DNA of 64,000 nucleotides, taken from assembly GCA_021208605.1 (NCBI GenBank), contig JAJOJK010000018.1, positions 4,780 through 68,779 on the forward strand. Direction: 5' to 3'. The notes below the pieces were generated by a model. It was given only the letters and a program-made list of their open reading frames with translations. It ran no database searches and was not told the DNA's origin. This document shows, piece after piece, positions 24,444-53,300 of this stretch. A program made the translations under genes and the position numbers. Position 1 is the first letter of the stretch. Each line of letters starts with the position of its first letter. The DNA is from Candidatus Woesebacteria bacterium. GTDB lineage: Bacteria > Patescibacteriota > Microgenomatia > UBA1400 > UBA1396.

Positions 24444-25243
24444 ATGCGCTTTCAGGAGGATCCTAGACGACTTTTGCGTGGTCTTGAGGCAACTCTGAAC
24501 AAAAAAGATACTATCGTGCACGCAGAATACGCCATGCGAGAAAAAGTAGTCCGTAGAATGATTCATATTGCTTTCGGAGATCCAGATAGGAAAAAAGATT
24601 TCTCTACATTAGTACAAGAAAATGCTGAGATGTATCTGGGTGTTCCAGTCTGTTTTCTGGCTGAGTCAATGAATGATTACTTCCATGTAATCAGAACAGC
24701 CTGTGCTGTCGAAGAAACGGAAGCGGAGACACTCTATTACAATCATGGGTTCGTTATCCCGAGGGAAAAAGCTTTCTTCACCTACCGTAATGCCTCGCAA
24801 AACATATGTACCACGAGATCATGCATATCAAGAACCGTGGATTACGGCACTACATCTATGGAGAAGCGCTGGATGAAGGCATGACAGAATTCATGGCTTT
24901 GCAATACACAAACAATCAAGTCGAAAAAACTACCGCAAGAAAACTCCTGGCAAAAATAGCCAATTTTATTCCTGCCTTCAGGAGTCATTACTCCACAGAA
25001 ATATCGATCATACAAAAGCTGCAAAGTAATCCGCGTATTGCACCACTTCTCCAGGAACGATACGCAGGCAATACCCCCGACAATACAGAATTTATGCAAG
25101 CACTAATCCTCGAGTACGGCTGGGAAGTATGTTTTGATCTCTGGAGGGCAGTGAGTAATACAGCACACTCAGATGGCGTAAACACGCCACTGCTGCCAAC
25201 AGAAACCGTACTGCAAAAACTCAATAGCTTAAGTCGTTCGTAG
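24444..25243 (+). pseudogene. putative HExxH zinc metallopeptidase, disrupted by a frame change (two overlapping ORFs 24444..24884 and 24806..25243)
   Basis: The second frame carries YHEIMHIKNRG...GEALDEGMTEF (HExxH plus a downstream Glu). The two reading frames overlap 24791-24884 with an offset of -1. An in-frame upstream extension (ATG ~24234, interrupted by a TAG at ~24336) is also possible. Confidence 0.45.
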
Positions 25244-25259
25244 TCTTGTTTGTAAGTAT

Positions 25260-26027
25260 CTACTCCGCCACCAACTTCGTCTCGACATCATTGGAAACAT
25301 ACGTGCCGACGCGCTCACCTTTGACCGCTTTGATCAAGTTATCGCCTTCGAAGAGCTCAAAGACCATCACCGGCATATTGTTTTCCATACACATGGAAAG
25401 CGCGCCGGTGTCCATTACTTGGATGTTTTCGTCGACGATGGCGTCGGCAAAGCGCATGGTTTCGTAGCGCTTGGCATCGGGGAATTTTTCTGGATCTTTG
25501 TCGTAAATGCCGTTGACTTTGGTGGCTTTCATCACCACATCGCAGTGTAGCTCGAGAGCATGGAGTGAGGCGCCGGTGTCGGTGGTCACATACGGAGCGC
25601 CAATTCCGGCAGTCAAGATCACTAAACGGCCCTTCTCCATCTGGCTAATAGCGCGGTGACGGATAAAGAGTTCGGCTACAGCAGGCATGTCGAGCGCTGA
25701 CATGACGCGATTATCGACGTCGAGCTGGTCAAGAGCACCTTGCAACGCTAAACCATTCATCACCGTGGCCAGCATACCCATGTAATCAGCAGTGGCGCGA
25801 TCAAAACCCTGCTGTGAAGCGGAAAGACCGCGGAAAATGTTTCCACCACCAACAACAACCGCTACTTGCACACCCATATCAGTCACCTGTTTCAATTTGC
25901 GCGCCACTTCTTCGGCCGCGTGACTATCAATTCCATACTCTCGATCACCTAAGAGTGATTCTCCACTCACTTTGATGAGTACTCGCTGAAAAGCTGGTTG
26001 TGCAGACATGGGCCCCTTTCTAGGCAA
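25260..26027 (-). CDS. pyrH: UMP kinase
   Basis: 255 aa amino-acid-kinase fold with UMPK motifs (KVSGESL, VVVGGGNIFRG). The track start is a TTG; the more likely start is the ATG at ~26007-26009 (MSAQPAF...), which has a GGGG Shine-Dalgarno. Confidence 0.9.
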   Translation of the reverse strand: MPRKGPMSAQPAFQRVLIKVSGESLLGDREYGIDSHAAEEVARKLKQVTDMGVQVAVVVGGGNIFRGLSASQQGFDRATADYMGMLATVMNGLALQGALDQLDVDNRVMSALDMPAVAELFIRHRAISQMEKGRLVILTAGIGAPYVTTDTGASLHALELHCDVVMKATKVNGIYDKDPEKFPDAKRYETMRFADAIVDENIQVMDTGALSMCMENNMPVMVFELFEGDNLIKAVKGERVGTYVSNDVETKLVAE

Positions 26028-26050
26028 AAAAAACCACCAAACCTTGGTGG
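26026..26050 (-). terminator. terminator-like hairpin plus U8 tract immediately 5' of the pyrH RBS (possible attenuator)
   Basis: Minus strand CCACCAAGGTTTGGTGG followed by TTTTTTTT, ending ~6 nt before the pyrH Shine-Dalgarno. Confidence 0.4.
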
Positions 26051-26170
26051 CTGCATTTCTTTATCTGGTTGTTTCCTTCCAACACTGCATGTGTCGAACC
26101 ATTATAGCGCACTTTCTCATTTCGTGAGGGGGATTCTGAAAAAAATGCATTTCATCGCCACGAGACAAAA

Positions 26171-26227
26171 AAGAGCAGGAGGCTGTTGAGGCATTCGCGC
26201 CTCACCCAGTCTCCTGCTTCTTTTTTC
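26171..26227 (-). terminator. large bidirectional hairpin terminator downstream of rpoC
   Basis: AAAAAAGAGCAGGAGGCTG...CAGTCTCCTGCTTCTTTTTT, 10 nt after the rpoC stop. Confidence 0.6.
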
Positions 26228-26237
26228 GTCGAACTAT

Positions 26238-29200
26238 TTAGACTTCTATCTCAGCCCGTTCCTCACTAGTCGGGATTAAGCGACCAATGATGACGTTTTC
26301 CTTCAGTCCGAGGAGGCGATCTTCTTTGCCTTCCACGGAAGCTTGGGTCAGAACAGAGGTGGTGTTCTGGAAGGAAGCGGCAGAGAGCCAGCTTTCGGTG
26401 TAGAGAGATGCTCGAGTAATACCGAGGATCAGCACCTGACCAGTGGCAGGTTCACCACCTTCGGCCAAGACCGTTTCGTTCTCTTCACGGAAGCGCATGC
26501 GGTCAACGATTTCACCTGGCAACAGGGATGTGTCGCCGGCGGTTTCGATCGAGACCTTGTCGCTCATCTTACCGATGATGACTTCAAAGTGCTTGTCGTT
26601 AATCGAGATACCCTGAGACTCGTACACCGCTTGGATGGCTTCGAGCAAGTACATCTGAGCTGCACGCATACCGCGGAGCTTCAAGACGTCACGTACATCG
26701 AGTGAACCAGCCGAGAGCTGTTGGCCAGCGGCGACTAAGTCACCGTCTTCCACCATTGGCTTGCTGGTACGAGGCAGATCGTAGGAACGCTCTTCTTGCG
26801 GCTTGCCTTGGGAAATGATCGTAATCTTGTAACCCATGTCAGTTTCCATGACCGTCACCTTACCGGCGATTTCGGCTAATGGAGCTTGCGCTTTGGGATT
26901 GCGGATTTCGAACAGTTCTTCCACACGTGGCAAACCTTGGGTCACGTCGAGACCGACGATACCACCAGAGTGTTTCACACGCATAGTCAGCTGAGTACCT
27001 GGCTCACCAATGGATTGGGCAGCCACAATACCGGCCGGAGTACCAATCTTGACGAGTTTCTTGTCGGACAAGTCCCAACCGTAACAGTGTTGACAGAGAC
27101 CAGTTGGCATCTGACAGCTCAGTGCGGAACGAACCCAGACACTCTCGACACCGGCGTTCACGATCGCTTCGACCTTGGCGTCATCGAGCAAAGTGTTGGC
27201 CTCAGCCAGCACGGTGCCGTTGGCATCCACTACTTCGCGAGCAGTGAAACGACCCAGCATACGCTTCGGGAAGACTTCATCGCGGCCAGCAGCTGACTTA
27301 ACAATCTCGAGACCTTCTTCAGTGCCACAGTCTTCGGCACGGATGATGGAATCGTGCGCCACGTCAGTCAAACGACGGGTCAGGTAACCAGCATCAGCAG
27401 TCTTCAGAGCCGAGTCAGTCAAACCTTTACGAGAACCACGGGAGGAGGTCACGTACTCGAAGATCGAAAGACCTTCACGGAAGTTTGACTTGGTAGGCAT
27501 TTCCACGATACGGCCCATTGGGTCGACCACGAGACCACGCATAGCGGCGAGCTGTTTCACCTGGTCTTTGGAAGCACGAGTACCTCCAGAGTTAATGATG
27601 ACTTTGATAGCGTTGGCTTCGTCAAAGTTATCCCAGGTCTTGTCGGCGACATCGTCGGTGGTTTCCATCCAGACGTCGAAGGTCAGACGACGCTTCTCTT
27701 CTTCGGTAATTAAACCTTGGAGGTAGTTGTCTTGGATTTCTTCGGCACGCTTGTTGGCTTTTTCGATAATCGCATCTTTTCGTCCAACATGACACAGTCG
27801 GTCACAGCTACGGACAAACCAGACTTAGTAGTCGTTTGGAAACCGAGTTCTTTGATGTTATCAATCAGAGCAGCAATGACTTCTGGGTCATCGTTGTGGT
27901 TGATAGCTTCAGTGACGATTTCCTTGATACGTCCAGCGGTAACCGCTTCGTTCACGTAGCCCATAGTAGCAGGCAGTACAGCGTTGAAGCGAATACGACC
28001 AACCGTGGTTTCACGACGCTCATAGGTACCATCTTCGTTACGGAAACGAACCGTAATGAGTTGACGCTCAGTGATCACCCCCATCTGTTGCGCCGTTTCG
28101 GCGTCCGCAGGAGAGGCAAACACGGTCTCGTGAGCAGCACGAGTCGCATCGACTGCAGTCAGGTAGTACACACCCATGGCCATGTCTTTGTTTGGCACAG
28201 TAATTGGGCTGGCGTCAGCTGGCTTGAGTAAGTTGTGCATTGGCAACATCTTCTCTTTCGCTTCGCGGATCGCTTGTTGGGTCAGCGGAACGTGGACAGC
28301 CATCTGGTCACCGTCGAAGTCAGCGTTATATCCAGAACAGACACAAGGGTGCAGACGGATAGCGTTACCTTCAATCAAGACTGGGTAGAAAGCCTGGATA
28401 CCGAGTTTGTGCAGAGTTGGAGCACGGTTCAGCATCACTGGGTGTTCGCGAGTGATCGATTCGAGAATGTCGAACACGATTTCGTTGCGACGCTCAAGCA
28501 TGTACTTAGCGCTACGAATGTTTGGCGCATAGCCCAAACGGATCAGTTCACGCAGTACGTGCGGCTTGAACATTTCCAGAGCCATTTCTTTTGGCAAACC
28601 ACATTGGTTCAAGTTGAGTTCTGGACCAACCACGATGACCGAACGACCGGAGTAGTCAACACGTTTACCGAGCAAGTTTTGACGGAAACGACCCTGCTTA
28701 CCGCGGAGCATTTCAGCCAAAGACTTCAGCGGACGGCGACGGACGCGACGACGGTTGCGTGAAGATGAGCTATCGATCAAAGCATCAACCGACTCTTGCA
28801 ACATACGTTTTTCGTTGCGCAAGATAATGTCTGGAGCACCCAATTTAATGAGGTGTTTCAAACGGTTGTTACGGTTGATAACGCGACGATACAAGTCGTT
28901 CAAGTCAGAAGCAGCAAAGCGACCACCAGAGAGTTGCACCATAGGACGCAGGTCCGGAGGCAGCACTGGCAACACCTTCATGAAGAGCCACTCTGGGTTT
29001 TGGCCAGAAGAGCGGAACCCTTCAATAATGCGCAGACGCTTGGTAGCTTTGACTTTGCGTTGACCCTTTAAGGTGTCGACTTCCTCTTGCAGCTGTTCAG
29101 CCAAGGCGTCGAGATCCAAAGTGCGGACAATTTCAAGCAAAGCTTCAGCACCCATGCCAATACGCAAGTGGTCAGCGGCATCGTACTCAATCAACTTGAT

Positions 29201-29992
29201 GTACTCGTCCTCAAAGAGGATGGAGTGCAACTCAACTTTTTTGACTAAGTCACGAACCGTGTTGTAGATTTCGTCAGCATTGTCGAGGTCGCTAGAAAGT
29301 TGATCTTTGATAGTAGCTACTTTTTGCTTAGCTTTGAGCTCAGTTGCTTGCAACTTGAGGGAGCGAGTCTCTTCGTTGGTGACTTGATCCTTGATGGACT
29401 TCAGATCACCGGCGAGCTGGTCGCGCAGATCGTCGATCTCATTTTGAGCATCATCTTTCAACACTTGCTTAGCGTTTTCGCGATCCTCTTCGAGACGGGC
29501 CAAAACAGCTTCTTTCTCTTCCACATCCACTTCGAGCACGATGTACTTGCTGAAGTAAATCAGAGAAGCTAAGTTACGTGGACTAATGTCGAGCAACAAA
29601 GACAGTGGTGAAGGAGCACCCTTAAAGAACCAGATGTGAGACACCGGCACGGCCAAGCTAATATGACCAAGACGCTCGCGACGCACGCGGCTCTGAGTGA
29701 TTTCCACACCACACTTGTCACAAACAATACCCTTGTAGCGGTAGCCTTTGTACTTACCACAGTGACACTGCCAATCTTTCATTGGACCGAAAATTTCTTC
29801 GGCAAACAAACCAGACTTTTCAGCGCGCTGGGTACGGTAGTTAATGGTTTCGGCTTTTTGCACCTCACCATGGGACCACTCTTTGATTTGTTCTGGCGGG
29901 GCCAAGGAAATGCGGAGTGACTCGAAGTCAACCACTTGTCCTTGTTTCGCTAAAGAACCAGCAAGTTTATTTTGATCTCCAAACTGTGCCAT
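26238..29992 (-). CDS. rpoC: DNA-directed RNA polymerase subunit beta', interrupted by an apparent -1 frameshift near 27776-27780
   Basis: Track gives two ORFs, 27710..29992 (N-terminal 760 aa) and 26238..27668 (C-terminal 476 aa). Re-translation shows the protein continues seamlessly if reading shifts -1 after ...VMLDEK into DAIIEKANKRAEEIQDNYLQGLITEEEKRRLTFDVWMETTDDV..., which aligns to E. coli beta' ([27 protein letters not shown]...). The shift site is a GAAAAG run on the coding strand. Confidence 0.85.
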
Positions 29993-29994
29993 GA

Positions 29995-32900
29995 TTACTC
30001 CTTATCCTCAGCTTCTTCATCTTCGTCGAACGCTTCCGGTTCCTCATCCTCCTCGTAGGAGTCGTCATCAGTGTCGGGAGCGTCTTCTCCAGTCTCTTCG
30101 TCATCCAAAATGATGGTTTCGTCGTCGACAGCTGGAGCCGCTTCTTCTTCCTCTTCGGTGACTTGGGCTTCACGCATCTCGACCTGGAGACCGAGAGAGT
30201 TCAACTCACGCACCAACACGCGGAAGGATTCTGGAACGGCTGGTTCCGGAATCGGCTTGCCAGACACGATGGCTTCGAAGGCCTTCGAGCGACCAACCAC
30301 GTCGTCAGACTTGATCGTCAACATTTCTTGGAGCGTATGTGCTGCCTGGTGTGCTTCAAGAGCCCAGACTTCCATTTCTCCGAGACGCTGTCCACCCATC
30401 TGGGCTTTACCACCGAGCGGCTGCTGGGTGACCAGAGAGTACGGACCAGTAGAACGAGCGTGCGTCTTGTCCTCGACCATGTGGACGAGTTTCAAGATGT
30501 AGCCGATACCAACCACAGTCTCTTCACCACAAGCTTCACCAGTACGACCATCGTACAACTGGGCTTTACCAGATTTTGGCAAACCAGCACGATCAAGTTC
30601 GTTCCAGATCTTGTCTTCTTCGAACTCTTCAAAGACTGGGACGGCGACCTTGTACCCAAGTTCGCGAGCGGCCCAACCCAAGTGAGCTTCGAGCAGCTGA
30701 CCCATGTTCATACGAGCCAAGACGGACAGTGGAGAAATAATAATATCCACTGGAGTACCATCAGCCATGTGAGGCATGTCTTCAACTGGAACAATCTTGG
30801 AAATAACACCCTTGTTACCGTGACGACCAGCCACCTTGTCACCAATCATGATCTTACGCAGCTGAGCTACGTGCACAATCACCTTCATGTTGACACCGGT
30901 TTCGAGTTCATCACCCTTTGCGCGATCCAAAATGTTCACACCGATAACAGTTCCGGCTTCACCATTTGGCATACGCAGGGAAGTGTCACGCACTTCACGA
31001 GCCTTTTCACCAAAGATGGCGCGGAGGAGGCGTTCTTCTGCAGTCAGTTCGGTTTCGCCCTTAGGAGCGATCTTACCGACCAAGATGTCACCAGCCTGAA
31101 CTTGTGAACCAACGGCCACGATACCAGCTTCGTCGAGGTGACGAAGCTCAGCTTCGGAAACGTTTGGAATATCACGAGTGAGTTCTTCCGGTCCGAGTTT
31201 GGTATCCATGACTTGGGCTTCGTACTCACTGATGTGAACAGAGCTGAGCAAGTCATCCTTCACCAAACGGTTAGAGATAATAATGGCGTCTTCGTATCCG
31301 AGTCCATCGAAGGAAGTGTAGGCAATAACCAAGTTTTGACCGAGAGCCAACTCACCGTTTTCGGCAGCCGGACCGTCAATCAGAAGGTCACCCTTGGCGA
31401 TCTTTTGACCAACCTTCACCACCGCACGCTGACTGTAACAGGTGCTTTGTGAAGTGCGCACAAACGTACGCAAGCTGTAGGTCAAATCCTGGCCCATAAT
31501 GGATACATTCTGGGAGTGACGCTCTTCAATGTGCTTGTCAGCTAACTCGGCATCCTTCTTGCTCAAACGCAACACAATCTTCTGGGCATCAACATAGGTG
31601 ACTTCACCTGGATACTCAGCGTAAATCGTGTGGCCCATAGCCTTGGCGATATCTCGCTCCATACCGGTACCGACAACTGGAGCTTGGGCGCCAATCAGCG
31701 GAACAGCCTGACATTGCATGTGAGATCCCATGAGAGCACGGTTGGCTTCGTCATGAGAAATGAACGGAATCAAAGAAGCGGAAGTACCCACCACCTGGCG
31801 TGGCACAACGTCAATGTACTGCACTTGCTCCGCTGGACCTTCGATAAATTCGTTGGCGTGGCGCATTGGAATCCATTCCTCAGCGATGTAGCCTTTTTCA
31901 TCGATCTCGATGCTGGAGTGAGTAATGTACAAATCTTCTTCGTCATCAGCCTGGAGGTAGACGACTTCGTCAGTCACCTTCATCTTGCCGTTGTCCTCGA
32001 CGACTTTTCGATACGGAGCTTCCAAGAAACCGTACTCATTGACGCGAGCATAGAGGGAAGATAGGTCACCAAACCAATATTTGGACCTTCTGGAGAGCGG
32101 ACCGGGTCAATACGAGAGTATTGAGAGGCATTAATGTCACGCATGGAGAAAGAGGCGCGCTCACGAGTCACACCACCGGTACCCATCACAGAAAGACGAC
32201 GTAAGTTGTCGACTTCAGACAGCGGGTTGGTCTGGTCCAAAATAGCGGACAGACGGTTACGGCGGAAGAACTCGGACACAGTCGCAATCAGCGGACGAGC
32301 GTTGATCAAAGAAGCTGGAGAGAGTTCTTCAGTGGTCTTAGCGAGAGACATCTTTTCACGAATGGAACGCTCTAAACGGAGCAAACCAACGCGGAAAGCC
32401 ACAGTCTGGACGAGTTCACCAACACGGCGAACACGACGGTTAGACAAGTGGTCAATGTCATCAACTTTACCAACACCGTTTTGCAACTTAATCAAGTACT
32501 TGAAAGCGGCCACGATGTCTTCTTTGGTTAAGACAGAGTTTTCTTTGGTATTGGGAACATTCAGATCTAAGCGACGGTTCACTTTGTAGCGACCGACTTT
32601 GCTCAAGTCGTAGCGACGAGGGTTGAAGAACAAGTCCTTCAAGAGTTCTTCGGCGCTTTCCAAAACAGCTGGCTCACCTGGGCGAATCTTTTCGTAGAGC
32701 TCGATGAGGGCTTCATTTTGTGATTTAGTAGGATCTTTTTCGATCGTGTTTGCAATGTAGTGCACGTCTTCGTTGATATCGACGTCCTTGAACATTTCCA
32801 GCAGTTCTTCGTCAGAAGCGTAACCAAGGGCACGCAGCAAGACGGTAGCTGGCACTTTGCGATGACGGTCAATCTTGACAGTCAAGATGTCGCGACGACT

Positions 32901-33413
32901 GGTAGCGACTTCAAGCCAAGAACCACGCATTGGACGAAGTTCGGCTCGGTACAACATACGACCCGTACGTGGATCGCTTTCACCAGAGAAGAAGATACCA
33001 GGGGAACGAACCAACTGGTTCACCACACAACGATCGACACCGTTGATCACGAAGGTACCGGTTTCAGTCATCAAAGGCAAGTCAGCCATGAAAACTTCTT
33101 GGACGTTGGTTTCTTCGGTGCGGAGGTTAGTGAGTTTTACTTCTGTGCGTAAAGGAGCATCGTAGGTCAAACCTTTTCGACGAGCTTCTTCTGGAGTCAG
33201 TTTGGGAGTTCCCAAAAAGTGGTTTCCGAACTCGAGTTTCCAGTTTTTCCCGGTAAAGTCGAGGATACCGCCGTTTTCGTTAATTTCGGCAAAAGCTTCT
33301 TGGACACCGTTGTCCAAGAAATCTTGGTAGGATTCCGTTTGTACTTGAATAAGGTCAACTTCAGGAAGAACGTTCTCAACGCTTCCCCAGTTCTGACGTG
33401 CTGGCTTGCTCAT
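29995..33413 (-). CDS. rpoB: DNA-directed RNA polymerase subunit beta, interrupted by an apparent -1 frameshift near 32064-32066
   Basis: Track ORFs 31980..33413 and 29995..32025. With a -1 shift after GPNIGLV(T) the sequence reads ...LSSLYARVNEYGFLEAPYRKVVEDNGKM..., matching E. coli [29 protein letters not shown]. Restoring one A (gtgAacc) would give the conserved Asn. Confidence 0.85.
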
Positions 33414-34014
33414 AACCCATTGTCCTTTACTGTTTTCGGTTTTTTTCGTTTATTTCTGAGGCTCTCACCTCAGGGATGACGCTTGCTGTCACCAAGAGCG
33501 TTTCCTCCGTGGCATGTGTATATAAAGAAAGACGCAAAAATTCACCTGCTCCTCAACAGAGAGGTGAAAATGTATTCATTTTTTAGCGACTTTGGTTATA
33601 TACGGACAATGTTTCTCCAGAAACGTGGCTTGCGTTACGAACGTGCATTGTATCGCACAATAGGCATAATCTCAACATACAGTTTTAGCGGTTTCAAAAG
33701 AAGCATTTTTCTTCACCAGTGCAGATATTCTTTCTCATAAAAAAGTCCTCGTTTACAGTTTGGGCTTATGGATCGGAAAAATACAATGGAAGTATTATCG
33801 AATCATTTTCTTCGGTCATTAGGTGGTCCTATCGCGACGAGAGAAAAATGAAAATTATCAAACAAGGAGTCATCTTTCGCATGTTGGGCTTATGGATCCG
33901 AGAGATAAATGTGGAAATGGATTGACGAGGATCCATACGAGTCCCGCCCGGGGAAGCTTCTCTTGTGAAGCAACCAAGAGGCGGGACGTCCAACTTGCGA
34001 AGGATGACTCCGAC
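33414..34014. other. ~600-bp non-coding gap between groEL and rpoB with internal direct repeats and hairpins
   Basis: No credible ORF. A ~30-nt motif GGGCTTATGGATC(G/C)GA(A/G)A(A/G)ATA(C)AATG(G)GAA occurs twice (~33757 and ~33881). There is an ATGGATCCGAG...CGAGGATCCAT hairpin and a GTCCCGCC...GGCGGGAC hairpin after the groEL stop. rplK/A/J/L, nusG and secE are not present upstream of rpoB. Confidence 0.4.
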
Positions 34015-35986
<1,972 letters not shown>

Positions 35987-36011
35987 GCGACCTCCTTGTT
36001 TTTGTACTGTT

Positions 36012-36640: not shown

Positions 36641-36652
36641 GACAGGTTATGG

Positions 36653-37045: not shown

Positions 37046-37122
37046 TCGCTCCCTGCACTAGGGTTGTTCGCTACGCTCACCCCGTCGCGAACCCGGCGAC
37101 TCCTCAACTCCACCCATGCATA

Positions 37123-37160
37123 TAAAAAAGGCGAGCACATACTGTGCTCGCCTTTTTTAT
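37123..37160. terminator. bidirectional rho-independent terminator (AAAAAAGGCGAGCACA-TACT-GTGCTCGCCTTTTTT)
   Basis: Perfect 11-bp stem flanked by A6 and T6 runs, directly 3' of tRNA-Cys on the minus strand. Confidence 0.7.
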
Positions 37161-37162
37161 TG

Positions 37163-37237
37163 AGCCACGGGCGGGATTCGAACCCGCGAATCGAAGGTTT
37201 TGCAGACCTCGCCATTAGACCTCTCTGGTACCGTGGC
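37163..37237 (-). tRNA. tRNA-Cys (anticodon GCA)
   Basis: Minus strand GCCACGG-TA-CCA-GAGAGGTCTAA-TGG-C-GAGGT-CTGCAAA-ACCTT-CGATTC-GCGGG-TTCGAAT-CCCGC-CCGTGGC-T. Seven-bp acceptor stem, T-arm with TTCGAAT loop, anticodon loop CU-GCA-AA; CCA is not encoded. Confidence 0.8.
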
Positions 37238-39353: not shown

Positions 39354-40279
39354 ATGTCACATCGCAGCATTTTCAAAGTCGCCATCGTCGGCTGTGGTCG
39401 TGTTGGAATGACGGCCGCCTACTCCATCATCACGAGTGGCTTGGCTACTGACTTGGTTTTAGTAGGCCGCGACAAAGCCAAACTCGAAGGCGAAAAACTC
39501 GACCTCGAACACGCTCTCCCCTTTTACCAGACGTCAATATTGTCGCGACCGATGACTACGCCGACCTCCAAGGCACCGATGTCGTCATCTTTGCCGCCGG
39601 CGCCGCCCAAGAACCAGGCGAAACACGCCTCGATCTGGCCAAAAAGAACCTTGCGCTCGTGGATGCTCTCGTCCCCAAAATCCTCGAACACGCTCCGCAC
39701 ACCGTCCTCTTGATGGTCACCAACCCGGTCGATGTGCTCACGAATCGCGCCAACGAAATTTCTGGCAAATATAATGGCAGAGTTTTTGGATCGGGCACGC
39801 TCCTCGACACCGCTCGCTTCCGCTTCTACCTTTCCGAATTTTTAGACGTCAACCCAAGGAGTATCCACACCTACATTTTGGGTGAACATGGCGACTCTTC
39901 TTTTCCTGCTCTGTCTGGAGCCACTCTCGGCGGTGCAAAACTAACGGAGCTCCCAGCTTTCTCGCACGAAAAAGCCATGCAGTCATTTGAACAGGCTCGG
40001 AGTGCCGCCTATCGCATCATTGAAGGCAAAGGCGCCACGTACTACGCCATAGGGACCGTCCTTACGCAGATAGTGAAATCCATTCAGCGCGACGCCCGTA
40101 CCGTTATGCCGGTTTCACACCCCCTAAAAGATTTTTATGGCGTCAGCGACGTCTCTTTGAGCGTGCCCTGTATTATTGGTCGACGGGGTATCGAGAAAGT
40201 CATGCCTGTTCAACTGGATGAAGCCGAAATCGAACAGCTCCATGCCTCAGCTGAGGCCGTGCGTGCCTATCAACAATAA
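39354..40279 (+). CDS. ldh: L-lactate dehydrogenase, interrupted by an apparent -1 frameshift near 39528-39531
   Basis: Track ORFs 39354..39713 (KVAIVGCGRVGMTAAY... Rossmann) and 39659..40279 (...MVTNPVDVLT...GSGTLLDTARFRFYL...). The third frame in between reads DVNIVATDDYADLQGTDVVIFAAGAAQEPGETRLDLAKKNL (Gln before the EPG, which is LDH-type rather than MDH-type). Continuity needs one extra base after ...ALPFYQ. Confidence 0.8.
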
Positions 40280-45349: not shown

Positions 45350-45378
45350 AGTTAGGCTCTATTGTATCAGGGGAAAAA

Positions 45379-45627
45379 TTATTTGCTCTGTGATTGCTTC
45401 AGAGTACGAGACATACGCGCTTTACGACGAGCAGCAGTATTCTTGTGCATCAAGTTACGCTTCACGGCTTTGTCTAAGCGGCTGTAGGCCTCTTGTAAAG
45501 CTTCAGCAGAAGGGTTGCTCATGAATTTCTTGACCGCAGTCTTCATCTGAGAACGAACCTGGTTGTTGATAGCTTGCTTGCGCAGAGAAACGCGCAAAGC
45601 TTTTTTGGCGGATGATAGTATTGGCAT
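45379..45627 (-). CDS. rpsT: 30S ribosomal protein S20
   Basis: 82 aa helical S20 family. Confidence 0.9.
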   Translation of the reverse strand: MPILSSAKKALRVSLRKQAINNQVRSQMKTAVKKFMSNPSAEALQEAYSRLDKAVKRNLMHKNTAARRKARMSRTLKQSQSK

Positions 45628-45673
45628 AGAGGAGAGATTATATCATATATTTTGAGAAGTCCGAAGCAATTTC

Positions 45674-47437
45674 TTGAGGGACAACCAAAATCTGACCCAC
45701 TGCCCACTCTCCTATTATGCTCTGGACCAAATCGGCGTCTTTCGTCATACTACCCACATGCAAGCATTCACCCGGTGGCTGCGTCGCCAGAGTTCCTGGA
45801 TTGAGTCGCAACAGGCCTCAATTCTCTCTGCCGCGACGATAATTTTTGTGGCTAACATGGCCTCGACTCTTGCCGGATTAGTGAAGAATCGTGTCCTCTC
45901 CTCGGTCTATTTCACTCCAGAATTCCAAGGTGGAAATCTCCTGGACGCATATTTTGTAGCCTTCCGGGCCCCTGATTTCGCCTTTAACTTGATTATTCTT
46001 GGTTCGCTCTCGGCTGCTTTTGTACCATTGTTTTCTGCCCGTTACGCCAAAAGTGAAAAAGATGCCTTCCGCTTTGCTAACCAAACGATGTACCTCTTAA
46101 TGAGCGTATTTGTACTCGCCAGCATCGCCATCCTGCTTTTCACTGAACCCTTCGTGCATTTCCTCACCGGTGATGGCTTAACGGACCTGCAAGTCACCGA
46201 AGCCATCTCAATGACACGCATTATGGTTCTGGCGCAGCTTTTCTTTGGATTTTCTGGCTTTATCTCCGCCATGCTACAGAGTGTCAAACGCTTTATTATT
46301 CCGGCATTTAGCCCGCTGTTTTACAACTTTGGCATAATCTTTATGACCGTTTTTGCCCATGACTGGCTCGGAATTCAGGCGGCTGCATGGGGAACAGTGC
46401 TCGGCGCCGGCCTGCACATGGCAGTACAAATCCCACTCTTGCTGAAAATCGGCTACCGACCGTTCATCTGGCCAGAATGGAACTGGGCCGATATGCGAGA
46501 GTTCTTTTCGTTGACAGCACCACGCACTCTGGCTCTCGGCGTTTCTCAGCTGAATCTCTGGGTCATTACCTTCTTTGCCACCGCCATTGGTGGCAATGCG
46601 CTGACCATGATTACGTTCGGTCAGATGCTGATGAACATTCCCATTCGCTTTTTTGGCGTCTCCATTGGCCAGGCTGCGCTTCCGTTTCTGTCCGCCGAAC
46701 AACATGACATTGTTGGCTTCCGACGCACGGTGTATCGATCGTTGCGCCAGATATTCTTCTTTGCTGCTCCGGCCTCGGTACTCTTGCTGATTTTGCGTGT
46801 CCCAGCGGTACGTTTAGCCTACGGAACCCAAGAATTCCCCTGGAGAAATACGCTCATCACGGCGCAAGCGGTGGGAATTCTCGCCGTTTCGATTGCCCCA
46901 CAAGCAGCCACACACCTCTTGATGCGGGCTTTTTATGCCTTAAACAACACCGTTACACCGCTCATCGCGGCCGTTCTGTATCTGGTGGGAACGGCGGCCT
47001 TTGGCTGGTACTTTTCCCTCCAAATGGGGATGGGGCTCAATGGCATAGCCTGGGCACTAACACTCGCCGCCACTCTGGAGACATTCTTTTTACTCTTTGC
47101 TCTCATCTGGAGAATCGGCTTAGGCGATGTGCAAAAACTGTTTTGGTCATTACTTCGTATTACGAGCGCCGCCTTTTTGATGGCTGTCACACTCTTTGTT
47201 TTCCAGCGCTTACTCGATCTGTATGTCTTTGAAACTTCACGTACATTGCAATTGCTCCAACTCACCATGAGCGTAGCCTTGATGGGTGGCGCGGTGTACT
47301 TGATACTCTGTTGGCTTTTCCGTATCGAAGAGCTCACCATTTTGGGCACTATTACGCGTAAGATTCGCCAGAGTTGGAAGAAAGTCAGCAAATCGACACC
47401 GGCATTTTTGGAAACTATTTCTGGATCTGAGTCGTAG
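45674..47437 (+). CDS. murJ: lipid II flippase MurJ (MviN family)
   Basis: 587 aa with ~14 TM segments, MOP/MurJ family; the start may be an internal Met. Confidence 0.85.
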   Translation: MRDNQNLTHCPLSYYALDQIGVFRHTTHMQAFTRWLRRQSSWIESQQASILSAATIIFVANMASTLAGLVKNRVLSSVYFTPEFQGGNLLDAYFVAFRAPDFAFNLIILGSLSAAFVPLFSARYAKSEKDAFRFANQTMYLLMSVFVLASIAILLFTEPFVHFLTGDGLTDLQVTEAISMTRIMVLAQLFFGFSGFISAMLQSVKRFIIPAFSPLFYNFGIIFMTVFAHDWLGIQAAAWGTVLGAGLHMAVQIPLLLKIGYRPFIWPEWNWADMREFFSLTAPRTLALGVSQLNLWVITFFATAIGGNALTMITFGQMLMNIPIRFFGVSIGQAALPFLSAEQHDIVGFRRTVYRSLRQIFFFAAPASVLLLILRVPAVRLAYGTQEFPWRNTLITAQAVGILAVSIAPQAATHLLMRAFYALNNTVTPLIAAVLYLVGTAAFGWYFSLQMGMGLNGIAWALTLAATLETFFLLFALIWRIGLGDVQKLFWSLLRITSAAFLMAVTLFVFQRLLDLYVFETSRTLQLLQLTMSVALMGGAVYLILCWLFRIEELTILGTITRKIRQSWKKVSKSTPAFLETISGSES

Positions 47438-47504
47438 ACTTGAAACGCGTGACCGGCGGGTCCAACCTCTTCACTGTTCTCCATAAAACTTGTTCCCCAA
47501 TCTA

Positions 47505-47537
47505 AAAACGGCCCCGTTTCCGAGGCCGTTTCGTTTT
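47505..47537. terminator. bidirectional terminator between convergent murJ and the pilin P6 gene
   Basis: AAAAACGGCC-CCGTTTCCGA-GGCCGTTTCGTTTTCG hairpin. Confidence 0.55.
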
Positions 47538-47554
47538 CGATTTTCAGCTTACAA

Positions 47555-48010
47555 TTAGTAAGGCTTAATCTGTTGGAGGGTATCACTGATACCAGAGCCA
47601 AAGATGTTAATACCGAAGAAGTAAGCGATAATTTGCATGATCGCGTAGCTGGAAGCAACGATTGCCAAACCGACTAAAGCGGCCGTAATCTTGTTGCGAG
47701 CAGATTCGGTTTTACCCTTGTCACCACCAGAGGTGATCCATTGGATACCACCAAGAATGAGGTAACCAAACACCAAGATAGCAGAGATCAAAAGAGCGGC
47801 ACCAATCGCGCTAGAAAGCAGACGACCAACGTCGGTAATTTTGATATTAGCTTGATCTTGATCCACCGTAACTTGTGGAACACTTTGTGCGAGGGCGGCA
47901 CCAGCAGCGGTTAAGAAACCAACTACGGAACTCCCTGCGGCGACAAGTTTCTTTTTAGTCATACGACTCCTTGTACTGTTTTCTTTTTTCATTATACCAG
48001 TTTTTCTCAA
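47555..48010 (-). CDS. T4SS pilin-like protein P6 (VirB2/TrbC-like, two-helix)
   Basis: 151 aa; a signal-peptide-like N-terminus, then TM-(GGIQWITSGGDKGKTESARNKITAALVGL)-TM. Closest paralog is P5. An extended -10 TGGTATAAT promoter lies upstream. Confidence 0.55.
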   Translation of the reverse strand: MRKTGIMKKENSTRSRMTKKKLVAAGSSVVGFLTAAGAALAQSVPQVTVDQDQANIKITDVGRLLSSAIGAALLISAILVFGYLILGGIQWITSGGDKGKTESARNKITAALVGLAIVASSYAIMQIIAYFFGINIFGSGISDTLQQIKPY

Positions 48011-48074
48011 GTTCTATGGTAGCACAGTCTTTTTTTCTTCGTAAAGACTGAATACCATCTGTGTTCTTCTTTCG

Positions 48075-48653
48075 CTAGCAAGAACTAAAGTCATAGCCAG
48101 GCTTTTCTGCACCCGCTGTTTCGCAGCTACAGGGCTCGTAGTGCGTATAAGGCAACTGAGAAACACCTTGGCCAGGACCAAAGCACTGCACCGTGGCAGC
48201 ACCGGTAGTACAGTATCCGCCGGCTCCGCCGTCGCTGTAAGTGCGACCAATTTCACAACGCACGCCACCGCCGCCTTGAGAGGCTGCGCCAGCTGCTCCT
48301 GCGGCACCACTGCCGCCACCCAACGTGTTTCCACCGCTGTTATCCCCAAGAACATTGATGCCAAAGAAATACTGCACGATAGAAAAGATAGCAAAGACTG
48401 ATACCAAAACTCCTAAGCCAACAATAGATTGAATAATTTTTTCGCGGGCCTTTTCGATCTTGCCTTTATCGCCACCGGAAGTAATCCATTGGACACCTCC
48501 GAGAACCATATAGCCAAAAGCAGCAAGTGCACCCACTAAAATGGCCACTCCAACAAAACTTCCAACAAGGACACCCAGATCCGTCTGAATTGGTGCACCA
48601 CCAATTTGTTGTAAATTCTGAGCGATGTTGACTTCGGCTGTACCTGCAAACAT
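48075..48653 (-). CDS. T4SS pilin-like protein P5 with Gly-rich / six-Cys C-terminal extension
   Basis: 192 aa; core LGGVQWITSGGDKGKIEKAREKIIQSIVGL, plus a C-terminal ...GGGVRCEIGRTYSDGGAGGYCTTGAATVQCFGPGQGVSQLPYTHYEPCSCETAGAEKPGYDFSSC. Confidence 0.55.
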   Translation of the reverse strand: MFAGTAEVNIAQNLQQIGGAPIQTDLGVLVGSFVGVAILVGALAAFGYMVLGGVQWITSGGDKGKIEKAREKIIQSIVGLGVLVSVFAIFSIVQYFFGINVLGDNSGGNTLGGGSGAAGAAGAASQGGGGVRCEIGRTYSDGGAGGYCTTGAATVQCFGPGQGVSQLPYTHYEPCSCETAGAEKPGYDFSSC

Positions 48654-48661
48654 GATTTCTC

Positions 48662-49111
48662 CTACTGTGTTCTTCCTGGTACTGCCCCACTCATTCCTCC
48701 ACTGCCTGGAGCTGACGGTTGACGCAAAGAACCGGCGCCGGATGAGTTCAGCTGATTAATAAACGTTGGATTCAACAGATCGAGTCCAAAAACAGGACCA
48801 ATAAAGGCCGCCACAGCAACCACAGAGGCTAAAACGGCTAAACCAACAATAGATTGAATAATTCGATCGCGTGCTTTTTCTATCTTGCCACTATCTCCAC
48901 CCGCTGTAATCCAGCCAATGGCTCCTAAAAACATGTAGAGCAAAACAGCCAGTCCACCAAGAATTAAAGCGGTTTGAATCAACAAAGCAATGTATAAGCC
49001 AAGAACAGAGGCTCCACCGGAAGCCGTATCTGGCGCGCTAGAGATTACTTGTTCCACCGCTGGAACAGCTGGATTTGTAATACGCTGGGCGAGTAAAGTC
49101 GATAAAATCAT
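48662..49111 (-). CDS. T4SS pilin-like protein P4
   Basis: 149 aa; core LGAIGWITAGGDSGKIEKARDRIIQSIVGL. Confidence 0.55.
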   Translation of the reverse strand: MILSTLLAQRITNPAVPAVEQVISSAPDTASGGASVLGLYIALLIQTALILGGLAVLLYMFLGAIGWITAGGDSGKIEKARDRIIQSIVGLAVLASVVAVAAFIGPVFGLDLLNPTFINQLNSSGAGSLRQPSAPGSGGMSGAVPGRTQ

Positions 49112-49528
49112 TTAGGGTCCTCCTGGGTAGCTAGACGAGCTGGGAATAATTTGTAAGAAGGTTTCGCCAGGGTCCAAAATATTGAGACCGAAGACACCGC
49201 CAACAATGCCAATAATCGCCACCGCCAAAATCATGACGAGCAAACCAATGGCTGCGTTGATCATTTTCTGTTGGGCTTTTTCAACAGCACCCTTGTCGCC
49301 ACCAGCACGGAGCCAGTCGAATCCGGCAATCAATAAGTAGACCACAAAGAAAATGCCGCCGAGAACGGTGATAAAGGCAATAATGTTGGATAGTTGCTCG
49401 GAAAAAAGAGTCACTAATCCTTCACGATCACCGAGGTTGCCAGCTACTTGGTCACCGATGAAGCCAGCGCCGGTAATTGGCTCGTCACCGAGTTGAAGTT
49501 GTTGTCCTTGGGCGAGTAAATTGCTCAT
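49112..49528 (-). CDS. T4SS pilin-like protein P3
   Basis: 138 aa; core IAGFDWLRAGGDKGAVEKAQQKMINAAIGL. Confidence 0.5.
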   Translation of the reverse strand: MSNLLAQGQQLQLGDEPITGAGFIGDQVAGNLGDREGLVTLFSEQLSNIIAFITVLGGIFFVVYLLIAGFDWLRAGGDKGAVEKAQQKMINAAIGLLVMILAVAIIGIVGGVFGLNILDPGETFLQIIPSSSSYPGGP

Positions 49529-49535
49529 ATCTATC

Positions 49536-49901
49536 CTAGTTTCCTACACCTTCGATCACTGGTTGCAAGAGGAAGCGGGCGTCACCAAAGAAGAAGAGTC
49601 CAATGAGCGCGGCCAAAAGTGGCGCGGCGACCATGACTAATAATCCAATAAAGGTATTCGTAATTTTCTGACTCATCTCACCGATCTGCTTGGAGTCTCC
49701 AGGAGAAACGATCACCATGAAGCCAGCAGTCAGAATATTAAACAAAGCCCAAATGCCACCGACGATAGTGACCAAAATAATCAAACGGGAAATAAAACCG
49801 GTAATTCCGGCGCCAGCGCCCAAAACACCGTAGCTATTTTCCACCACGGCTGGCGGGGTAATGGTTCCGAATGGATTGTTTTGTGCTAATAGTTTTCCCA
49901 T
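49536..49901 (-). CDS. T4SS pilin-like protein P2 (divergent)
   Basis: 121 aa; two TM helices flanking SPGDSKQIGEMSQKITNTFIGL. Confidence 0.45.
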   Translation of the reverse strand: MGKLLAQNNPFGTITPPAVVENSYGVLGAGAGITGFISRLIILVTIVGGIWALFNILTAGFMVIVSPGDSKQIGEMSQKITNTFIGLLVMVAAPLLAALIGLFFFGDARFLLQPVIEGVGN

Positions 49902-49908
49902 GATCCTC

Positions 49909-50250
49909 CTAGAATATCTTCACTCCGGTGAGCGCGGCAATAATCTGCATTATCCAGAATGAAGCCAACAATAGTATAAACCCGCCAATGGCGTAGAAAA
50001 AGGCTTTCTTGCCTTCTTCGGCTGCTTTTTTGTTATCGGGATTCATAACCATACGAAAACCGGCGGCAAAAATGAAAATGAAAAGCAAAACACCGGCCAA
50101 CACATAGACGTTGGGCAAAAGAATGTTAATTAACGTAGCAGGAGAGTCATAGACCGAAGCAACCGATGGTCCATCTGGACGGAGAAGATACGATTCACCC
50201 AGGTTTACCTGGGCGACTAAAGTTCGGGTGACGGACGTGATTTCGGCCAT
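49909..50250 (-). CDS. T4SS pilin-like protein P1 (most divergent)
   Basis: 113 aa; two TM helices flanking NPDNKKAAEEGKKAFFYAIGG. Confidence 0.4.
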   Translation of the reverse strand: MAEITSVTRTLVAQVNLGESYLLRPDGPSVASVYDSPATLINILLPNVYVLAGVLLFIFIFAAGFRMVMNPDNKKAAEEGKKAFFYAIGGFILLLASFWIMQIIAALTGVKIF

Positions 50251-50390
50251 TTCCGCTATTGTAGCACGGCCCTTGAGGAAAAGGGGGAATGTTTTTTCAC
50301 AGTTCGTTTCACAGGGGCTTAGTTTCTGACCAGCAAGCCTGTTGATTTACGAACCTGGTTTTCTGTCTTGAAGGCGATATAATTTGGAGG

Positions 50391-53300
50391 ATGGCCATTG
50401 ACTCAACTATACGTATTGAAAGCGTCCAGGAACTCAAGGATCGCTTACGCAGTGCTGGCGTACTTACCAACTGGAAACGCTTTAGCGATTTCTTGGAAGA
50501 ATTTGTTGGCGAAATTGAGAAGGCCGGAGAAAATCCTGAATTCGTCGCCACGATAAGCAGTGAAAAATTCCCCATTGACCTCGCAACACTGAAGTTTCTC
50601 TACGCGTACTTAGGTTCTGGGGACCACTTCGTCCGCGACTTTGCTGAAGAATCCGCTCTCGCCAAAATTCTGGAAATCATCACTGACACCAAACAAAAAT
50701 ATGGCAGTGCACTTGAAGGACTTAGCTCTAACGATACAGTGTCCCGACAGCGCCAAACAGCACTTACCTTCTTCCAACAACTTACCTACGATCTCGAACC
50801 AAGTAATCTCCAAGGAGAGACTGAATCCGAAGGCACTTTTCTTGCCGAAGCGCTACCGGCGGTTTTTGCAGACGATCAAATTCTTCTCAAGGCTGATAAT
50901 CCCAGCCAGGTCAACGCGCTCAAACAGCAAATTGAAGAACAATTCAACGAACTCCGTCAGCTTATCAAGAAGTATGACAGACCAGAAACAATCGAGCTTG
51001 AAACACAAGTAACAACGGCTCTCTCTGCGGCAAGGGCGCAAGCGCAGGCGAATGATGACGAAACGGCTCAACGCCAACTTACTCAAGCCAGTGAAATCCA
51101 GGAAACAGCGCAAAGCCAGCTCCGTGAATCACTCGAGGAGCGCCGAAAAGAACAACTCGACAAGATACGAAATTCGCAAGCTCTCCTTTTCTCTTTGGTT
51201 GAGAAATACTCAGAAGACACTTCATTTGATGAACTGTTCCTTTCTACACTTATTCAATATATTCGGGTCGATCGAATCGATTTTCAAGTCGTGCTCAGCT
51301 TTACCGCTTTCCTTGGATACTTGCGCGACCTCTTCGAGACACTTTTAGCCAACACCCGCGATTTTGTCGAGAAAAAAACGGAAGCATACAAAAAAGAACA
51401 AGCTTCCGCCAAAAAAACTCTTAATCGAGAACTAGCGGCGCTCTTCGACGTTGAACTTCCGCGAGAAGACGATGCCGGCGGTGGCGCGGATGAGGAGCAA
51501 GAAGAGGACGAGTCCACCCTCCTGACAGTCGAAGAATTCCGCACGCGACTCACCGAAGCAGAAGCTTCACTCAACTCGCTGCCGTTAGCAAACGTTGACG
51601 ATCTCAAAGCGGCCCTAGAACTCGAGAGCATTCAGACTGATAAACAAATACACGTTGTCATCGATTCTCTCTTCCAACAAGCCGACACGTTCTCCGACGC
51701 ACAAAGAGCAGCCATCTTACAAAAGCTCACCGCGTATATTGCACGGCTAAAAGCTGATCAAGAAGTTGATGAAGATAAACCAACGGACCGTCCCGAGGCT
51801 CAACCAGACTCCGTTCCCACTGTCACACCAGCTGCAGCCGAAACTGGCACCCAAGAAGAGCAAATCTCCAAACTGCGCCAAGGATCAGAACTCGCCCGCT
51901 TAAATGCATTGTTAGTTGCGCAAGCTGAGGGACAACTGTTTGTTCGCCTCAAGGAACTCGGCTATTCAGAAGAAAAAGCCGAAGAACTTATCGCCGCGTA
52001 TCATGGCGACCTCACTAACCTGATTTGGGCTGAACTCTTAGGCGCCGGCGGATACGCCATGCTCAAGGGTCAACAGACACAGTCACTTGGCGCGGTGGAA
52101 CTGACCCAGATCTGGCCAACGCCACCCAAATTGTTGGTAATGAAATTTTGGTTGCCAATGGCGGAACGTTACCCACCAATTATGGTGGCAATTATGCCTC
52201 GCCAGAACAAATAGCATCGCTCACCGAGAAGACACAATTGGCTGTCGCGCAGGCTGGTTTTGTTGATCCTGACGGGTCCTTGACTTCCCTCACTTCGGCA
52301 CTGGCATTTTTCCAGTCACCAGAGGGATTGCAGCAAATTTTGCAGCTTTCACAAAATGCTGATGTCTTGAATGCTATTCAAAGACAAAGCGGTATTTCCA
52401 GCGATCTTCTCGAGTTGCTGGGTTCGCTTGAGTCCCCAGAAGACATTGATCGGCTGCTACGCTTTGATCCGGAGGCACTGAAAAGCTTATCTCGTGCGGA
52501 GCGCAATGGCGTCAACCAAAAACTGCACCGCTTCATGGATTTGCATACACAAATTCAACAAGTGGGCTTTCTCCCACCTGCTGAACTTGAAGAATACAAT
52601 GCACTCGCCCGCGAAATCGAACCCATTTTCAATATTCTCAATGAGTATGGTGATGATCTGTATCTCTTACTGTACGCGCAACAAGACTTGGCTGACTTAA
52701 GCCAATTCATTCAGCGCGCCGCTCAAACGGAGGCCGCCGTTCAACAACGACTTCCTCAATTTGTGCAACGCGATGTGCAGTACACATCTCGTTTTGCCCA
52801 ATACGCCGTGGTGACAACGACGGTTACTACAACCGTTACCACGACCACCACGGAAATAAGCGAACAAGATCCTTCCTACCTACTCGGCGAAGCCAAAAAT
52901 GATCTGGCGCTCAAGCGCATGATCGCTCTCAGCATGGCCGCGACTCCAGAAGAACAAATGGAGCTGGAACTCCTGCTGCGCCATCCCGAAATGGCTGGTA
53001 TCCAACAAGCGACAGCAGCCGAAGGTGTACCGGCGCTCAATGCGCAAAACCTCTCTCAACAACTCGCTGCCCTGCAACAGAAAAACAGCGGCCTCAACCA
53101 AAAAATCGAAAAGGCCAAAGCCCTGCAAGCGGGCATGAAGGCCCTTATTGCCTCCAAAGGAAATCCTTACTTACTCGCTGCCAACCTGCTTAAAAGCAAA
53201 GAAGGCCGCAAACTCATCATGAAGGCACTTGGGGGCGCTGCCGCTGGCGCTACGGCCACGGTAGCAATTATTTTGGCGCCTCTGATTCAGTTCTATAACG

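Follow-up and report, generated by a model that had tools for sequence, protein, structure and literature searches.

Single-base breaks in rpoC, rpoB and other genes of an uncultured Patescibacteria bacterium are probably assembly consensus errors, with a likely exception in a peptidase gene

Of five genes that are split by -1 breaks in a stretch of 64,000 nucleotides (the window) from a Patescibacteria (Microgenomates-like) genome, four very probably owe their interruption to errors in the assembly consensus, while the break in the fifth, a gene for a putative HExxH zinc peptidase, is most likely a real pseudogenising frameshift. Error is assigned to the breaks in rpoC, rpoB and ldh, and with less certainty to that in the gene for a giant M23/T4SS protein, since other, nearly identical assemblies of this bacterium show no interruption there. 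The uncultured organism would accordingly encode an intact RpoC of 1251 aa, RpoB of 1139 aa, Ldh of 308 aa and giant protein of 1293 aa, with neither recoding nor gene decay in these four genes, and its assembly consensus would retain 1-nt indel errors at a rate of about one in 5–10 kb. An earlier note on this DNA had described five gene pairs broken in the -1 direction and had preferred error to pseudogenisation or recoding. All five pairs are present, each with a downstream open reading frame (ORF) that is in frame -1 relative to the upstream ORF (Table 1), and the reading through of the rpoB, rpoC, ldh and giant-gene sites in the other assemblies bears out the preference.

Table 1. Interrupted genes and other variable sites in the window (coordinates are window positions)
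Feature	Position	Strand	Description
Hypothetical 144-aa protein	18886..19322	-	Two inserted bases (18990, 18995) change the C-terminus
HExxH (HEIMH...DEG) putative zinc-peptidase gene	24444..25243	+	ORFs 24444..24884 and 24806..25243
rpoC (RNA polymerase beta')	26238..29992	-	ORFs 27710..29992 and 26238..27668; split 760 + 476 aa
rpoB (RNA polymerase beta)	29995..33413	-	ORFs 31980..33413 and 29995..32025; split 477 + 676 aa
Window-private 1-nt deletion (AA to A)	33939..33940	.	Non-coding, just after hairpin downstream of groEL; extra base in 5/5 siblings
ldh (L-lactate/malate dehydrogenase family)	39354..40279	+	ORFs 39354..39713 and 39659..40279; split 119 + 206 aa
Giant 1293-aa protein, T4SS-like cluster	50391..54271	+	ORFs 50391..52214 and 52148..54271; split 607 + 707 aa
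Two A-runs (A8, A7)	54270..54322	.	Spacer after giant gene; each 1 base longer in window than in most siblings

The nearest relatives of the window are metagenome-assembled genomes (MAGs) of the Microgenomates group, for which reason an origin in Saccharibacteria, at first suggested by GC content and the T4SS cluster, was rejected. As siblings we used three NCBI MAG assemblies, GCA_021208925.1 (G925), GCA_021208155.1 (G155) and GCA_021209405.1, together with Logan contigs from the runs SRR12390694 (S694), SRR12390696 (S696), SRR12390697 (S697) and SRR12390700 (S700). Identity between the window and the three MAGs and the Logan contigs of the four SRA runs was 99.86–100%, and the MAGs and Logan contigs possibly come from overlapping read sets, so that their independence is not full. 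Among the eight assemblies compared we found 58 one-base indel sites versus only 7 mismatch columns, most of which adjoin indels. The proportion of runs that vary depended on homopolymer length, being 0.03% for single bases, 0.12% for runs of 2, 0.4% for runs of 3–4 and 1.4% for runs of 5, and reaching 20, 33 and 62% for runs of 6, 7 and 8, respectively. The positions of the breaks were specific to each assembly, with different essential genes hit in different assemblies. In G925, for instance, gene calling yields neither rpoA nor dnaX, and extra bases are found at 5158 and 2344. Insertion of the sibling bases into the window reopened all frames. The frame-breaking indel is absent from the other assemblies for rpoB and ldh, partly absent for rpoC and the giant gene, and present for the HExxH gene. 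The verdict of error, where it is given, is drawn from this disagreement between assemblies, not from read pile-ups.

The earlier note had seen a systematic bias towards deletions. This does not hold, since the events private to the window comprise 3 insertions and 3 deletions, and two of the insertions break a sixth gene, which that note did not list. Insertions were also recorded in the siblings (16 insertions and 9 deletions in G155; 7 and 3 in G925). A deletion-only pattern had been perceived because only broken ORFs were viewed. The sixth gene encodes a hypothetical protein for which no Pfam match was found. None of the four siblings with coverage here carries either inserted base, gene calls in G155 and S700 give a product of 144 aa, and removal of the two bases from the window gave a 148-codon open frame. 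The same consensus-error process would have acted here through two insertions. Other private or minority non-coding indels in the window lie at 24126, 37130 and 37160. Rfam searches under relaxed settings, over the long non-coding stretches 33400–34030 and 23960–24450, returned nothing credible.

The genes rpoB and rpoC are single-copy and essential, and serve as standard phylogenetic and completeness markers. In rpoC, the A-run at 27777–27780 is A4 in the window and A5 in four of the five siblings, and a CG/GC swap at 27771–27772 adjoins the missing A. The sequence here is AATGCCATCTTTTTCG in G925, G155, S700 and S697, as against AATCGCATCTTTTCG in the window and AATGCATCTTTTCG in S696. The peptide deduced from the siblings is DEKDGIIEK, and relatives carry an uninterrupted DCxMxxEKDGIIE; the A-run is the site that had been proposed earlier, but the peptide proposed with it, DEKDAIIEK, was incorrect. 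RpoC is intact at 1251 aa in both G925 and S697, and is fragmented in G155 (861 + 203 aa), S696 (787 + 476 aa) and S694 (a fragment of 253 aa and others) as well as in the window. The corrected gene is an open frame of 1254 codons.

In rpoB, a G of the minus strand (C on the plus strand) is missing between 32058 and 32057 (CTT-G-CCC). All five siblings covering the site read CATAGAGGGCAAGATAGGT, and the C is absent from the window, to which the deletion is private. Restoration of the base yields the peptide GLVTYLALYARVNEYGF; both this peptide and GPNIGLVTYLALYARVNEYGF of rpoB are conserved among the Microgenomates, in more than 30 relatives. The restored Asn of the earlier note was wrong, the missing G lying 7–9 nt from the site proposed for it; nor do all the breaks fall in homopolymers of 2–5 nt as had been stated, since the rpoB site is not a homopolymer. 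A deletion outside a homopolymer is less typical of homopolymer miscalling. The rpoB product is 1139 aa in G925, S700, S696 and S694, its C-terminal part in the window matches RpoB in the PDB from query residue 13 on, and the corrected gene has 1151 open codons. Exact DNA patterns across the rpoB site, allowing for one extra base or none, had no matches in GTDB species representatives. Both restored peptides, of RpoB and of RpoC, are conserved in other Microgenomates genomes, more than 25 in number. In the comparison with orthologues that had been suggested earlier, siblings and relatives have a single frame across the rpoB and rpoC sites.

The break in ldh is a contraction of T5 to T4 at 39522–39525, within the NAD-binding domain. 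T5 is found in all four covering siblings, T4 being private to the window. The restored peptide is ALPFLPDVNIV, which replaces the ALPFYQ reading given previously. In G925 and S700 the gene encodes 308 aa, the Ldh_1_N and Ldh_1_C domains both being complete, and in G155 it is broken elsewhere (at 39506, as against 39521 in the window, into 67 + 246 aa). After correction it has 332 open codons. The break in the giant gene is a change of GGG to GG at 52114–52115, about 15 nt beyond the earlier estimate and just outside the end of the region to which the finding had been assigned. Here the evidence is divided: GGG is found in G925, where the product has 1293 aa, and in S697, where it runs unbroken for at least 949 aa, and GG in the window and S700 (607 + 677 aa), a vote of 2 versus 2, with the base present in two of three siblings. 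The protein has a C-terminal Peptidase_M23 domain at residues 1145–1238 (Pfam), and the corrected gene has 1308 open codons. The gene is non-essential and GG is possibly a real variant in some samples. Taken over the five genes, the breaks themselves are all present in the window, but three had been mislocated by 3–20 nt and two rebuilt with the wrong residues.

Could the cell itself restore these reading frames? Ribosomes might shift by -1 in a programmed manner, or transcription might slip; either would yield complete RpoC, RpoB, Ldh and remaining products from the window as it stands, and would fit the common -1 direction of the five breaks and the A-AAG of the rpoC site, on which tRNA-Lys can slip. 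However, in the siblings, as in more than 25 related genomes, a single frame encodes these proteins across the very sites in question, and the positions of the rpoC and ldh breaks vary between assemblies. A slippery heptamer of the form X-XXY-YYZ was found at none of the five sites (C-GAA-AAG, CTT-CCC, CCC-TTT-TAC, TCT-GGC-CAA and TCG-CAA-AAC), and the A and T runs, at 4 nt, are too short for transcriptional slippage. The window resembles dnaX-type -1 and prfB-type +1 frameshifting in having two overlapping ORFs that jointly match one protein; it differs from them in the lack of a heptamer, in a shift that is kept in neither orthologues nor siblings, and in sites that change with the assembly. 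With a heptamer lacking and no conservation of the shift in orthologues, programmed frameshifting was rejected, and for four of the genes it is already contradicted. The earlier note had considered it unlikely, and we give it, together with transcriptional slippage, virtually no chance.

We also consider it very unlikely that the frameshifts as a whole are real mutations, arising either from pseudogenisation or as variation within the population, for example by homopolymer phase variation. The HExxH break is indeed reproducible in all assemblies, the GG allele of the giant gene recurs in the window and S700, and long intergenic A/T tracts can truly vary. Yet frameshifted alleles of the single-copy, essential rpoB and rpoC cannot be the functional majority in a reduced genome, each assembly breaks different essential genes, and real divergence would be expected to be rich in substitutions, whereas substitutions are nearly absent and indels abundant. 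A phase-variable (contingency) locus would have a tract of at least 7 nt, with in-frame and out-of-frame alleles, within a surface or restriction-modification gene or upstream of one. At the five sites the tracts measure 1–4 nt, and two of the five genes are essential core genes. Consensus error stays our reading of the rpoC, rpoB and ldh breaks and, with the reserve noted above, of that in the giant gene.

The HExxH gene differs from the others in that its break is common to all seven assemblies that cover it. The interval is identical in the window, G925, G155, S696, S697, S700 and one more Logan contig. By homology the -1 break is placed at ~24795–24803 (CAAAAC), inside the interval that had been given for it. 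Four remote homologues (P0003–P0006) of 348–402 aa are single ORFs that align across the junction, with modest support upstream of it. A profile of these homologues matches the frame-2 ORF of the window from its fourth residue, at model position 243 of 389, with 88.6 bits. When the frame-0 stretch EKAFFTYRNASQ was joined to it, the score rose to 95.8 bits, a gain of about 7.5 that was reached by 2 of 200 shuffles (~1%). The frame-0 N-terminal part alone had no significant match to the profile. No Pfam family was found for the HExxH protein or for homologue P0004, and a word-indexed protein search with the HExxH protein returned its own fragment only. Exact DNA patterns across the site (0 or 1 extra base) had no matches in JGI metagenomes, and no independent short-read copy was found there.

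Because the frameshift is identical in all covering assemblies and the remote homologues are single ORFs, the HExxH gene is most likely a real pseudogene, a dispensable and poorly conserved accessory gene that would have suffered a true frameshift. The earlier note had singled out this gene as the one possible true pseudogene. It shares with frameshift pseudogenes of accessory genes a reproducible break, uninterrupted homologues and poor conservation, and its joined product (266 aa) is, as in such a pseudogene, N-terminally shorter than the homologues. It differs in that its break is reproduced at the level of assemblies and that no close orthologue was found by which to date the mutation. We infer that the break is real, although a deterministic, context-specific miscall common to all assemblies is possible. 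The locus might also be read as two separate small genes that overlap by ATGA at 24879–24884. The Logan gene calls, of 146 and 120 aa with a 4-nt overlap, agree with this, as does the failure of the frame-0 part to match the profile by itself. But HEIMH...DEG lies in neither product, being encoded in frame 2 at 24812–24880, upstream of the 120-aa start, and the profile of single-ORF homologues aligns from the fourth frame-2 residue and scores higher with the frame-0 stretch joined. Two separate genes thus seem unlikely. It is extremely unlikely that the HExxH site undergoes genuine recoding, by -1 slippage on CAA-AAC, or belongs to a deliberately split, regulated CPR gene, or that the GG of the giant gene is a real on/off population variant.

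Indels in homopolymers of long-read consensus sequences, with frameshifted gene calls as a result, are a documented artefact (PMC9262707). The window resembles such consensus errors, for example those of Oxford Nanopore R9, in its 1-nt indels that rise steeply with homopolymer length, in the differences between assemblies and in the splitting of conserved genes (PMC9262707). In contrast, rpoB and several other sites lie outside homopolymers, and insertions are as common as deletions. A literature search on the SRR, GCA and WGS accessions turned up nothing relevant. The errors would presumably stem from an indel-prone read technology and/or low coverage.

The finding is an ordinary one and serves mainly as a warning on quality control and data hygiene. 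About 6 of the ~75 genes of the window are mis-split, including the rpoB and rpoC markers. Gene calling applied naively to this assembly and to the siblings leads to truncated markers, lower estimates of completeness and spurious short 'new' protein families. Before pseudogenisation, recoding or gene loss is claimed for this genome, the case needs a check against siblings or accurate reads. In an exact look-up, the 760-aa rpoC and 477-aa rpoB products of the window and a 431-aa SecY reading (7747–9039) had no record. The out-of-frame HExxH fragments of 146 and 120 aa and the 476-aa RpoC fragment are already contained in a public protein collection.

The earlier note held that five genes are each interrupted by a -1 frame break, and the ORF listings of the window show all five pairs, the second ORF lying in the -1 frame relative to the first on the same strand (table). 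Solved structures of RpoB match the C-terminal rpoB ORF from residue 13 on. The listed pairs and this structural match establish that the observed frame breaks are present in the window. Near-identical assemblies of the same bacterium (siblings) were located by exact-protein look-up of intact neighbours, namely EF-Tu, GroEL, the 347-aa T4SS-cluster protein, S4 and the 146-aa HExxH fragment. The same locus was found in three NCBI MAG assemblies, GCA_021208925.1 (G925), GCA_021208155.1 (G155) and GCA_021209405.1 (G405), and in Logan contigs of SRR12390694, SRR12390696, SRR12390697 and SRR12390700 (S694 to S700). These loci were 99.86-100% identical to the window by BLASTN and together cover it entirely.

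Split genes and other features of the window
Feature	Coordinates	Strand	Content
rpoC	27710..29992; 26238..27668	-	upstream; downstream ORF
rpoB	31980..33413; 29995..32025	-	upstream; downstream ORF
ldh	39354..39713; 39659..40279	+	upstream; downstream ORF
Giant protein	50391..52214; 52148..54271	+	upstream; downstream ORF
HExxH gene	24444..24884; 24806..25243	+	upstream; downstream ORF
Sixth broken gene	18886..19322	-	hypothetical, 144 aa in siblings
T4SS_pilin (PF18895)	48075-50250	-	four or five small genes
T4SS-like or conjugative-pilus-like cluster, plus-strand part	within 47555-60160	+	1293-aa M23-peptidase giant protein; unannotated 347-aa protein; PrgI-like, 424 aa; TraC-like, 310 aa; VirB4-like AAA_10/DUF87 ATPase, 824 aa
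Mevalonate-pathway genes	62200-64000	-	mevalonate-diphosphate decarboxylase-like, 322 aa; DUF35/OB-fold, 126 aa; thiolase, 298 aa; ACP_syn_III_C/HMG-CoA-synthase-like gene
groEL/rpoB spacer	33414-34014		non-coding, ~600 nt
rpsL/HExxH spacer	23972-24443		non-coding, ~470 nt
tRNA-Cys	37162-37237	-	only tRNA gene of the window

At the rpoC site, four siblings read AATGCCATCTTTTTCG on the plus strand versus AATCGCATCTTTTCG in the window, where the coding-strand run at 27777-27780 is A4 rather than A5 and a CG/GC swap is also present; S696 differs again, with two bases missing. The peptide actually encoded is ...DCVMLDEKDGIIEKANKRAEE..., and this site is uninterrupted in other Microgenomates. In rpoB, all five siblings compared carry an extra plus-strand C (CATAGAGGG-C-AAGATAGGT). 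On the coding strand the window lacks the G that separates CTT from CCC at 32058/32057, and the restored peptide GPNIGLVTYLALYARVNEYGF is kept in more than 30 relatives. The earlier note had put this base in a homopolymer at 32064-32066 and had restored an Asn; the sibling comparison corrects both position and peptide and places the base outside any homopolymer. The ldh run at 39522-39525 is T5 in all four siblings and T4 in the window. With T5, this L-lactate/malate dehydrogenase family gene reads ALPFLPDVNIV and encodes a 308-aa protein with Ldh_1_N and Ldh_1_C both complete. A sixth broken gene, missed by the earlier note, contains two inserted bases private to the window, at 18990 and 18995. 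When sibling bases were inserted at the rpoC, rpoB, ldh and giant-protein sites and these two extra bases removed, all frames were uninterrupted (rpoC 1254, rpoB 1151, ldh 332, giant protein 1308 and sixth gene 148 codons). The sequence of the sixth gene product (MPQKNVDKEYYENAVYHVYNRG...NHFHLKVW...) had no match in Pfam; its YHVYNRG and HFH motifs presumably recall HUH/Y1 (IS200/RAYT-like) transposases.

Comparison of eight assemblies gave 58 variable 1-nt indel sites versus 7 mismatch columns, mostly adjacent swaps beside indels. The share of homopolymer runs that vary was 0.03% at length 1, 1.4% at length 5, and 20%, 33% and 62% at lengths 6, 7 and 8. The set of broken genes differs from assembly to assembly. 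RpoC is intact at 1251 aa in G925 and S697 and split into 861+203 in G155, 787+476 in S696, 253+... in S694 and 760+476 in the window; ldh breaks at 39506 in G155 versus 39521 in the window. A PBP gene is split in G155 only, a pilin gene in G925 only and the mevalonate-diphosphate decarboxylase gene in S700 only, while rpoA and dnaX lack a gene call in G925, which has extra bases at 5158 and 2344. Substitutions are almost absent, the indels become commoner with homopolymer length, and the breaks in essential genes are not reproduced between assemblies. From these three features together we infer that the differences are consensus errors of an indel-prone data type, a well-documented artefact (PMC9262707). 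The sequencing or assembly error preferred in the earlier note is supported, the sibling bases reopening four frames, but its rule that all changes are deletions is not. The window has 3 private insertions and 3 private deletions; G155 has 16 insertions, 9 deletions and 4 substitutions of its own, and G925 has 7 insertions, 3 deletions and 1 substitution. There is no directional bias, and deletions seemed universal because only ORF-breaking changes are visible. Further private or minority indels of the window, all non-coding, lie at 33939, 24126, 37130, 37160, 54270 and 54322. Disagreement is densest at 37118-37160, an A/T-tract region adjoining the tRNA-Cys gene, with five variable sites in 45 nt and votes split 3:3, 2:3 and so on.

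Programmed frameshifting, already considered unlikely in the earlier note, was rejected for rpoC, rpoB, ldh and the giant protein: an X-XXY-YYZ slippery heptamer is absent at all five break sites, transcriptional slippage would need longer runs, and siblings and orthologues use one frame. In the HExxH gene it is very unlikely. For the giant protein, which carries a C-terminal Peptidase_M23 domain, site 52114-52116 is GGG in G925 (1293 aa, one ORF) and S697, and GG in the window and S700, which share an identical 607-aa N-terminal fragment. Given this 2-to-2 vote in a non-essential gene, the break is likely an error, but the GG allele may be a real variant.

The HExxH gene behaves differently, with no sequence differences from the window within 24444-25243 in G925, G155, S696, S697, S700 and one further Logan contig. 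An exhaustive HMMER search recovered four remote homologues (348-402 aa, roughly 30-37% identity over matched stretches), each a single ORF in which HExxHI..PGLR...G..(L)DEG(M)T occurs. The profile made from these four aligns with the frame-2 ORF starting at residue 4, which falls on model position 243 of 389 (88.6 bits, E = 6e-28); the frame-0 ORF alone gave no match to the profile. Joining the two frames at CAAAAC (24798-24803) extended the alignment through YNHGF...EKAFFTYRNASQ and raised the score to 95.8 bits, a value attained by only 2 of 200 sequences with a shuffled N-terminal part; relative to the homologues, the joined product lacks ~100 aa at its N-terminus. The Logan gene caller reads the locus as two products of 146 and 120 aa with an ATGA overlap, but this leaves the HEIMH...DEG motif in neither protein. 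A deterministic miscall is possible; however, it requires one error common to seven assemblies, which is unlikely since errors at other 4-5-nt runs are confined to one or two. The break most probably reflects a genuine frameshift in an accessory gene undergoing decay, and the suggestion that this gene alone might be a true pseudogene has become the probable reading. The broken genes, accurately observed in the earlier note, represent an ordinary artefact and, in one case, a pseudogene that is probably genuine; the base-level reconstructions of the note required correction. The finding has no biological novelty and serves to warn that frameshift-aware annotation or polishing is needed for this assembly and its siblings.

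The organism belongs to the Microgenomates group of the Patescibacteria. Its RpoB shares only 81-82% amino-acid identity with the best GTDB species representatives, and the exact sequence of the rpoB site is absent from all representatives searched. The MAGs with the closest RpoB are labelled Woesebacteria or 'uncultured Pseudomonadales'; the second of these names is apparently a submitter mislabel on Patescibacteria-like contigs. Two non-coding gaps are unusually long for a compact genome; the groEL/rpoB spacer has a GTCCCGCC/GGCGGGAC hairpin right after groEL, the rpsL/HExxH spacer has many A8-A9 tracts, and no credible Rfam match was obtained for either spacer, relaxed thresholds included. 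The mevalonate-pathway genes of this CPR bacterium, annotated from precomputed Pfam hits, have a layout that we take to resemble the archaeal thiolase/HMGCS/DUF35 arrangement.

A large public protein set already lists products of the frameshifted genes as separate entries (proteins P0001 and P0002; Logan gene-call sets L010 and L014), including the 146-aa and 120-aa HExxH, C-terminal 476-aa RpoC and 607-aa giant-protein fragments.
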